Shown here: positions 55,535 through 60,290 of the stretch, piece by piece
Layout: every line of letters starts with the position of its first letter
How positions within the stretch are numbered: position 1 is the first letter of the stretch
IMG/VR virus record: IMGVR_UViG_3300021961_000021
Source of the DNA: a virus
DNA length: 64,000 bases
Strand: one strand, 5' to 3'
The notes under the pieces: generated by a model
Told to the model about the DNA's origin: nothing
Database searches by the model: none
The model's input: only the letters and a program-made list of their open reading frames with translations
Translations under genes and position numbers: made by a program

Positions 55535-55553
55535 ATTTTCGCCAAAATAAAAG

Positions 55554-55625
55554 TGGGAAATGGTGGATTTGAACCACCGACCTCACGATTATCAGTCGTG
55601 TGCTCTACCCCTAAGCTAATTTCCC
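55554..55625 (-). tRNA. trnI: tRNA-Ile(GAT)
   Basis: Acceptor GGGAAAT/ATTTCCC; anticodon arm CACGA-CTGATAA-TCGTG; GGTTCAAATCC T-arm; no encoded CCA. Confidence 0.95.
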
Positions 55626-55673
55626 AATGGGGAGGGGAAGCACTTCTCTATCCACCGAGCGTTACTTCCCCAG

Positions 55674-55746
55674 TGGAGAATAGCGGACTCGAACCGCTGA
55701 CATCCTGCTTGCAAAGCAGGCGCTCTACCAACTGAGCTAATTCCCC
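55674..55746 (-). tRNA. trnA: tRNA-Ala(TGC)
   Basis: GGGGAAT/ATTCTCC with G3:U70; anticodon arm CCTGC-TTTGCAA-GCAGG. Confidence 0.96.
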
Positions 55747-55885
55747 TGGCGGCCCTTTTGTTAAAGGGGTAGAGCCGAACCCCTGTCGGGACTAGAGTGT
55801 GGACCCCTCTTCCCTTACGACGCTACGGACGACACCCGTAGTAGAAGTTGATCTCCTTCTATGCTATCTGCATAACGAGTATCAA
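55747..55885 (-). ncRNA. Candidate structured ncRNA between tRNA-Thr and tRNA-Ala
   Basis: Five back-to-back hairpins, no long ORF; see findings. Confidence 0.55.
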
Positions 55886-55959
55886 AGCCCACGGTCGGAC
55901 TTGAACCGACGACCTACGGTTTACAAAACCGTTGCTCTATCCAGCTGAGCTACGGAGGC
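55886..55959 (-). tRNA. trnT: tRNA-Thr(TGT)
   Basis: Anticodon arm ACGGT-TTTGTAA-ACCGT; T-arm GGTTCAAGTCC; acceptor has a C5-U68 mismatch. Confidence 0.92.
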
Positions 55960-56140
55960 GTTCTTCTTTGGACAACTTGAAGTATAAAGTATAATACCGT
56001 TTCTTCATTTCGTCAATAGTATTCATATCTTCCTCAAATCCTAAGTATTTAAGAAATGAATATGATCCTTCCAATTCACTTAGAAGTCGGCATACGTTTA
56101 TGGATGATAATTCGTGACCACCAAAAATGTATTTATTCAA
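55937..56140 (-). CDS. Hypothetical protein
   Basis: 67-aa ORF whose last codons overlap the tRNA-Thr 5' end. Confidence 0.7.
   Translation of the reverse strand: MNKYIFGGHELSSINVCRLLSELEGSYSFLKYLGFEEDMNTIDEMKKRYYTLYFKLSKEERLRSSAG

Positions 56141-60215: not shown

Positions 60216-60290
<75 letters not shown>

Follow-up and report, generated by a model that had tools for sequence, protein, structure and literature searches.

Phage tRNA arrays are usually taken as codon-supply kits. The 139-nt spacer under study occupies positions 55747–55885 on the minus strand of a 64,000-nt stretch of DNA, here called the window, which is assigned to an uncultured T4-like cyanomyovirus. The tRNAs and neighbouring genes of the window resemble those of Synechococcus and Prochlorococcus myoviruses, with only ~67–72% identity across small fractions of its length. 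Along the minus strand the order is a small ORF, tRNA-Thr, the 139-nt spacer, tRNA-Ala, a 47-nt spacer, tRNA-Ile, and a RimK-like gene. The tRNA-Thr(UGU) gene (55886–55959, minus) is called by ARAGORN and scores 63.6 bits with the Rfam tRNA model, tRNA-Ala(UGC) (55673–55746, minus) is called by ARAGORN and Rfam, and a 47-nt hairpin spacer separates tRNA-Ala from tRNA-Ile (55553–55625, minus). All three tRNAs of the array, including tRNA-Thr, lack an encoded CCA; a tRNA-Asn elsewhere in the window (60216–60290) encodes GCCA. An ORF check of the 139-nt spacer gave nothing of note, and a sigma-70-like site lies at 56016–55988. The small ORF upstream of the array (55937–56140, minus) runs into the first 23 bases of tRNA-Thr and its C-terminal region (...MKKRYY.LYFKL..KEE) is conserved among relatives (L020 in our numbering of loci), so ORF and array are probably co-transcribed.

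An earlier, sequence-only reading of the region had proposed a structured non-coding RNA nested in the tRNA operon and distinct from a tRNA cloverleaf, while leaving room for a known cyanophage motif such as manA or wcaG. ARAGORN and the Rfam tRNA model see only the flanking tRNAs, even at E ≤ 10, in agreement with that reading. Rfam 15, run at gathering thresholds on the whole window and at E ≤ 10 on 701 nt and 145 nt, returned only tRNAs and chance-level epsC and PreQ1; the spacer thus matches no Rfam 15 family even at E ≤ 10, and manA, wcaG, PhotoRC, glnA, and abiF were all absent at E ≤ 10 from the 701-nt and 145-nt searches. The homologues of the region covary, in the 38-nt module and in the 3′ element described below, which bears out the proposal of structured RNA within the tRNA operon.

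Comparison of these homologues divides the spacer into a composite of three parts, namely module A, hairpin c, and a 68-nt tRNA-like element, and the gaps of such arrays accordingly hold separately evolving folded RNAs. The five inverted repeats that the sequence-only reading had listed on the minus strand are all present, and the comparative data retain four of them as RNA structure and discard the second; the single ~139-nt unit it envisaged gives way to a chain of separately shuffled modules in which the conserved unit is the 3′ 68 nt. Module A (55848–55885, minus) is a 38-nt three-part hairpin that starts at the first base after tRNA-Thr and consists of an outer UUGA/UCAA, a middle CUC/GAG, and an inner UUAUGC/GCAUAG helix closed by the loop AGAUA. 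The first repeat (ATGC/GCAT) forms its inner hairpin. Across 11 distinct copies, 99.3% of cells are paired, four pairs are changed on both sides (GUC/GAC to CUC/GAG, for example), and covariation reaches 0.291 against 0.115 in shuffles. Copies of module A stand directly behind many different tRNAs, with or without a downstream tRNA-like element. The second repeat (AGAAG/CTTCT) was rejected because its 5′ arm is used by the covarying module A helices CUC/GAG and UUGA/UCAA and because the stem is missing in the L027 lineage. Hairpin c (55823–55841, minus; CUACGG-GUGUCGU-CCGUAG) corresponds to the third repeat and is conserved in the window lineage and in the L027/L034/L044 lineage, where the stem is kept beneath three loop variants but does not covary. 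A reading of hairpin c as a TGT/Asp-anticodon mimic, based on UGUC in its loop, was rejected since the loop is not conserved.

Folded alone, module A has z = −3.97, hairpin c z = −1.83, and the tRNA-like element z = −0.30. The whole 139 nt has a minimum free energy (MFE) of −44.7 kcal/mol (z = −1.64), which is unremarkable, with 14 of 200 shuffles folding equally well; the plus strand folds more weakly (z = −1.10). For the full spacer and for the element these energies are uninformative because nested folding is blind to the knot that the alignments support.

The tRNA-like element (55747–55814, minus) comprises a P1 hairpin, a linker, a P2/pseudoknot domain, and CCA. Its covariance model, R1, scores 80.6 bits (E = 1e-24) and finds a single copy in the window. 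Pattern scans of IMG/VR and JGI metagenomes recovered ~80 homologous phage contigs or loci carrying 44 distinct sequences; the 3′ 68 nt are common to all of them, and the shortest form, of 67 nt, sits flush between two tRNAs. The cyanomyovirus contigs that bear it come from coastal, estuarine, and lake habitats. A blastn search against 50,697 phage records gave matches to the 3′ half in S-RIM50, S-SZBM1, DSL-LC03, and one S-RIM8 strain, all four of them cultured cyanophages. Divergent members, sought in viral, metagenome, and genome scans and by a model search of 477 kb of loci, did not appear, and only this tight family with one copy per locus was found. Scanning 185,579 species genomes with the element pattern gave one match, which is non-homologous, lacks complementarity, and was taken as chance; within those genomes the element is, on this evidence, phage-only. 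A literature search found no published description of the element or its core sequence, and an anonymous entry for it in a list of 10,006 candidate viral RNAs is possible.

The 5′ domain is built around P1 (55788–55814, minus), whose strands GGGA-AG-AGGG/CUCU-AG-UCCC enclose a 2x2 internal loop. P1 is the inner part of the fourth repeat and shows changes on both sides in all nine pairs, whereas the outer GTCG/CGAC part of that repeat is lineage-specific and has one C that is also used by the adjacent stem. The P1 stem differs freely between lineages, from 5 to ~12 bp, and is capped by a 7-nt loop (GUCCACA; 55798–55804, minus) with the form GUCCA-N-A in 43 of 43 full-length distinct homologues, including those from scans that did not fix the loop. 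Outside the element, the loci collected contain two distinct hairpins with a GUCCANA loop, about as many as the 2 expected by chance, and the loop is therefore not a free-standing motif. A linker of 3–9 nt connects P1 to P2.

The fifth repeat is the P2 hairpin (55765–55784, minus; AGGGG-UUCGGCUCUA-CCCCU), which takes the form GGGG/CCCC or GCGG/CCGC below the loop UU-CGGCUC-UA. Two of its five pairs covary (G-C/C-G/G-U and A-U/C-G), the closing pair among them. Two features that the sequence-only reading lacked complete the domain, a pairing of this loop with the tail and an invariant CCA. The loop strand CGGCUC (55772–55777, minus) is complementary to the tail strand GGGCCG (55750–55755, minus), and the two exchange together, from C-G to A-U at one position and among G-C, G-U, and A-U at another. 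Between P2 and the tail strand lies the A-rich linker L3, UUAACAAAA (55756–55764, minus), in which ACAAAA is invariant; a scan that left L3 free gave no other variant of this motif. L2 is the invariant dinucleotide UA. As deduced from the alignments, the fold is an H-type pseudoknot with an L1 of 2 nt, an L2 of 2 nt, and an A-rich L3 of 9–10 nt.

Support for the knot comes mainly from its haplotypes. Eight occur among the homologues, and seven of them are fully complementary at 6/6 pairs although the retrieval patterns used for this test left all 12 pseudoknot positions free. They include CGGCUA/UGGCCG (C-G to A-U), CGACUA/UGGUCG and CGACUC/GGGUCG (G-C to A-U), and G-U intermediates. The loop-tail helix is 99.6% paired, with compensatory changes in two pairs, a C-G to A-U exchange split 23:20, and two of its six pairs invariant across homologues. 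Three non-homologous pattern matches pair at only 0, 1, and 4 of the 6 positions. Over the whole element, in an alignment of related sequences with several columns fixed by the retrieval patterns, 92–93% of cells are paired compared with 74–75% in shuffles (29 and 44 distinct sequences; 92.6% versus 74.4%), and covariation is 0.49–0.51 compared with 0.17–0.19 (0.493 versus 0.172), a value reached by 0 of 500 shuffles; slid controls are 39–53% paired. Two other partners for these strands were considered and set aside. A helix between tail and P1 loop (GGUCC x GGGCC) is contradicted by G-to-U tail variants, and a nested helix between the P2 5′ strand and the tail, the MFE proposal for L005, conflicts with the covariation of column 39 with column 54 and the invariance of column 73.

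This pattern of change bears directly on whether the element is an RNA at all. A tRNA gene in decay, for instance a relic of tRNA-Trp, or a feature of the DNA itself, such as the scar of a recombination event or the end of a mobile element, would account for the tRNA-sized slot (67 nt), the T-arm-like GGUUCG, the Trp-like loop, the GCCA end, and the presence/absence polymorphism among S-RIM8 strains without invoking RNA function. However, compensatory changes keep three helices, one of them non-nested, in marine, estuarine, and freshwater phage lineages, and the loops and L3 stay invariant as the stems drift, which amounts to purifying selection on an RNA fold. We therefore regard decay or a DNA-level origin as very unlikely.

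The knot also invites comparison with the preQ1-I aptamers (RF00522), which have in common with the element an H-type layout, a 5-bp G-rich P1, an L1 of UU or UC, and a 9-nt A-rich L3. The P1-L1 segment of the element (AGGGGUUC) is similar to its B. subtilis counterpart (AGAGGUUC), the T. tengcongensis aptamer has exactly the same L3 (UUAACAAAA) (PMC10639078), and PreQ1 is the sole riboswitch family that Rfam lists for the region. A ligand-sensing relative, with the knot binding a 7-deazapurine-like or other purine-like metabolite, might be read from these similarities. The Rfam score is 10.7 bits, though, against a gathering score of 39, and its E of 7.6 is chance level. L2 is just UA, so that the specificity cytidine (C15 in the T. 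tengcongensis aptamer) is absent (PMC7641330). In the ligand-free T. tengcongensis aptamer, A14 of L2 occupies the pocket between U6 and A29 (PMC7641330), and the A of the element's UA loop could fill such a preQ1-like pocket permanently. The second helix is much stronger than its riboswitch counterpart, with six mostly G-C pairs in place of 3–4 weak ones, and should fold ligand-free. There is no que gene context and no expression platform, and what follows is a tRNA, not a gene. A riboswitch relative is thus highly improbable.

The encoded CCA (55747–55749, minus) has a G before it and directly adjoins the first base of tRNA-Ala. All 45 loci examined have CCA behind the tail, including loci from a pattern that did not require it, and the next tRNA begins 0–3 nt later in nearly all loci with a detected downstream tRNA. 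The identity of this neighbour differs between loci (Ala, Pro, Val, Trp, or an odd tRNA-like gene), and the position of CCA stays fixed relative to the knot even where 1–3 nt precede the next tRNA. Since CCA keeps its place relative to the knot and not to the tRNA, it is part of the element and not a leader signal. Among the 409 distinct tRNA genes of these arrays, by comparison, CCA is encoded in only 35. In two loci (L022 and L050) the element's CCA is followed not by a tRNA but by a shared non-tRNA sequence, (A/C)GGGCUCACAUGUACCAAGG..., and in L022 the next detected tRNA is a tRNA-Gly 124 nt beyond the CCA.

Circularly permuted, two-piece tmRNAs are known from cyanobacteria and some cyanophages, and the element could in principle be the acceptor piece of one, having a T-arm-like hairpin, a CCA end, and often tRNA-Ala as its next neighbour. 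ARAGORN finds no tmRNA, however, and a tag reading frame is absent. The would-be acceptor 3′ strand pairs, with covariation, with the hairpin's own loop and not with a downstream 5′ strand, and an ordinary tRNA of varying identity comes next. A tmRNA origin is consequently so improbable as to be nearly negligible.

The loop and the end of the element resemble one tRNA in particular. GUCCANA is identical at 6/7 positions to the anticodon loop CUCCAAA of the phages' own tRNA-Trp, and 7 of 8 tRNA-Trp genes encode CCA, always as G-CCA and with the loop CUCCAAA (L014, L022, L023, L029, L036, L043, and L061). The main identity elements of bacterial tRNA-Trp are the anticodon and G73. The parallel between the GUCCANA loop and GCCA end of the element and tRNA-Trp is only suggestive, because G-CCA is also found in Arg, Ser, Gln, and Asn genes of these arrays. 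Loop position 32 is a G, which is unusual in tRNAs, and position 37 is A, C, or U. Phages that bear the element and have large arrays also carry a normal tRNA-Trp.

The alignments establish the structure, conservation, and placement of the RNA modules. To explain them, we favour, by a modest measure, a processed small RNA that would work by tRNA mimicry, its folded modules being cut from the multi-tRNA transcript and accumulating as RNA. Host tRNA-trimming enzymes should excise the modules: a cut at the 3′ end of tRNA-Thr would create the 5′ end of the spacer RNA, and RNase P cleavage at the start of tRNA-Ala would produce a CCA-OH end with no extra nucleotides. The exact abutment of the spacer to both tRNAs fits the release by RNase P and tRNA 3′ processing that the sequence-only reading had suggested. 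We infer from RNase P cutting that the encoded CCA would be the 3′ terminus of the RNA, which would end in ...GGGCCGCCA. Barring further cleavage, the primary product in the window would span all 139 nt and carry the three parts together; minimal versions would yield 67 nt.

In the released RNA, the 3′ domain is predicted to form a compact knot in which P2 (4–5 bp) and the loop-tail helix (5–6 bp) are bridged by the 2-nt L1 and the A-rich L3, the latter probably running along the P2 minor groove. Coaxial stacking of the two helices would produce a rod of 10–12 bp with a single-stranded (G)CCA, imitating the acceptor/T-arm rod of a tRNA. The 5′ domain would present the invariant 7-nt loop GUCCANA on P1. 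A knotted end of this kind would resist exonucleases, be repairable by CCA-adding enzyme, and might be charged. Together, the loop and the GCCA end would occupy a factor that binds tRNA-Trp, such as TrpRS or a host defence enzyme that cuts tRNAs or modifies CCA, and the RNA would then be a decoy or competitor. The element lacks a D/T-loop elbow, and the lengths of P1 and the linker vary so that the distance from loop to CCA is unfixed; these features make it less likely that the RNA decodes or closely copies the L shape of a tRNA. A bolder version, in which RNase Z and RNase P free a genuine chargeable tRNA-like structure of a DNA phage, recognized by TrpRS through the UCCA loop and G-CCA or by a defence enzyme directed at tRNA-Trp or CCA, and serving as a decoy that protects translation during infection, appears doubtful. 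If true, it would extend pseudoknot-type tRNA-like structures with a defined amino-acid identity beyond RNA viruses for the first time.

The main rival to mimicry is a cis-acting 'portable tRNA end'. Here the knot and CCA would do no more than furnish the adjacent RNA or tRNA precursor with a well-defined 3′ end that withstands exonucleases, or order the RNase P and RNase Z cuts, and the released piece would have no function in trans. The element is without exception confined to tRNA arrays and stops at the start of the following tRNA, as expected of such an end, and it is dispensable within one phage species. Modules A and H (the latter described below) are shuffled around it and also stand directly behind tRNAs, which suggests a general family of self-folding trailers. 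A purely cis-acting end, in turn, leaves unexplained why GUCCANA is invariant on a stem that covaries freely and why CCA is invariant when most neighbouring tRNAs have none encoded, and the minimal 67-nt form carries no upstream cargo except P1. We consider this explanation possible but less probable than not.

In overall plan the element is closest to the TYMV-type tRNA-like structure (Rfam RF00233). Both pair a hairpin loop with the 3′ tail, so that the acceptor stem is a loop-tail pseudoknot, and in the element, as in the viral structure, two stacked helices would end in a single-stranded (N)CCA. Both also have a separate hairpin with an anticodon-like 7-nt loop, that of the element having U at the second position followed by CCA. 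Unlike the viral structure, which sits at the 3′ end of an RNA genome, the element belongs to a DNA phage and lies inside a tRNA operon; it has no T-arm/D-arm elbow to give an L shape, no fixed loop-to-CCA distance, and no Rfam match. In effect, the element reproduces the working end of a tRNA by means of a fold known, within the literature searched, only from plant RNA viruses and a riboswitch class.

The species 1 and 2 RNAs of T4 (rnaC, 139 nt, and rnaD, 119 nt) are likewise small non-tRNA RNAs inside the tRNA cluster of a T4-type phage, and rnaD ends in ...GCACCA. The T4 record places them after tRNA-Arg, at the cluster end. Model R1 found no match in the T4 tRNA region (L084), and there is no sequence or structure homology to rnaC or rnaD, which makes these RNAs the closest functional analogue but not homologues. 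They have stood unexplained in the tRNA cluster for 50 years, and their function is still unknown (PMC9697503). The family described here is compact, covaries strongly, and has cultured hosts (S-RIM50, S-SZBM1, and DSL-LC03), and the role of non-tRNA RNAs in phage tRNA operons is therefore directly testable. Should the element prove to be a chargeable mimic, or to act as a decoy against defence enzymes that target tRNAs, abundant viruses of marine and fresh waters would have a new kind of RNA-based counter-defence or control of translation.

A similar logic of processing exists in vertebrates, where RNase P cleavage at the downstream tRNA-like unit (mascRNA) makes the 3′ end of the upstream MALAT1 RNA and an A-rich, triple-helix-type fold protects it. 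MALAT1 differs from the element as a long RNA of eukaryotes that folds in another way and lacks CCA, and the analogy is one of logic only.

The presence of the element varies within a single phage species. In S-RIM8 A.HR5 (L085), tRNA-Thr and tRNA-Ala abut and the element is absent, whereas S-RIM8 strain RW_03_0807_WH8101 (L002, KX349286) has a 328-nt insert with the element between the same two tRNAs. From these comparisons, the element is an accessory, exchangeable cassette. It is sporadic, being present in only four cultured cyanophages and in one S-RIM8 strain but not its sisters, and for this reason we consider it dispensable.

Besides the tRNA-like element, the 328-nt cassette of S-RIM8 contains module H, an odd tRNA-like gene, and ~130 nt more. 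Module H, a spacer RNA of ~45 nt that recurs among the loci, has the layout UUUGCG-CUGG-AAAGAUAAA-CCAG-AAUGCCG (L001:555–595, L002, L029, L038, L046, and L004:1065–1105). Its closing stem differs by locus (CAAUCA/UGAUUG, UUGCUG/CAGCAA, or GGGUAG/CUACCC), and its inner stem covaries between CUGG/CCAG and UCGG/CCGA. The 47-nt spacer between tRNA-Ala and tRNA-Ile in the window (55626–55672, minus) has a similar layout; it folds as a strong hairpin (−20.2 kcal/mol, z = −3.16) that is closed by GGGGAAG/CUUCCCC and interrupted by internal loops, with GAUA in the loop of its inner hairpin.

The odd tRNA-like gene, reported by ARAGORN as 'tRNA-???(ca)', occurs at L002:663–737, L003:~672–737, and L004:~818–885 and in L024, L031, and L075, often directly 3′ of the element's CCA. 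Its acceptor stem is 8 bp long and is accompanied by a D-like arm and a T arm, and at the position of the anticodon arm it carries a 3-bp stem (CCC/GGG or GUG/CAC) with an invariant 5-nt loop, GACAA. Finally, at L023:8270–8420 (minus), a sigma-70-like promoter (TTGACA...TATAAT) precedes a leader that starts with the hairpin GCGGGG-GUCCAAA-CUUCGC, whose loop is as in P1, and continues with a CCUCCC...GGGAGG fold just 5′ of tRNA-Arg(UCU), a single occurrence that is at chance level.
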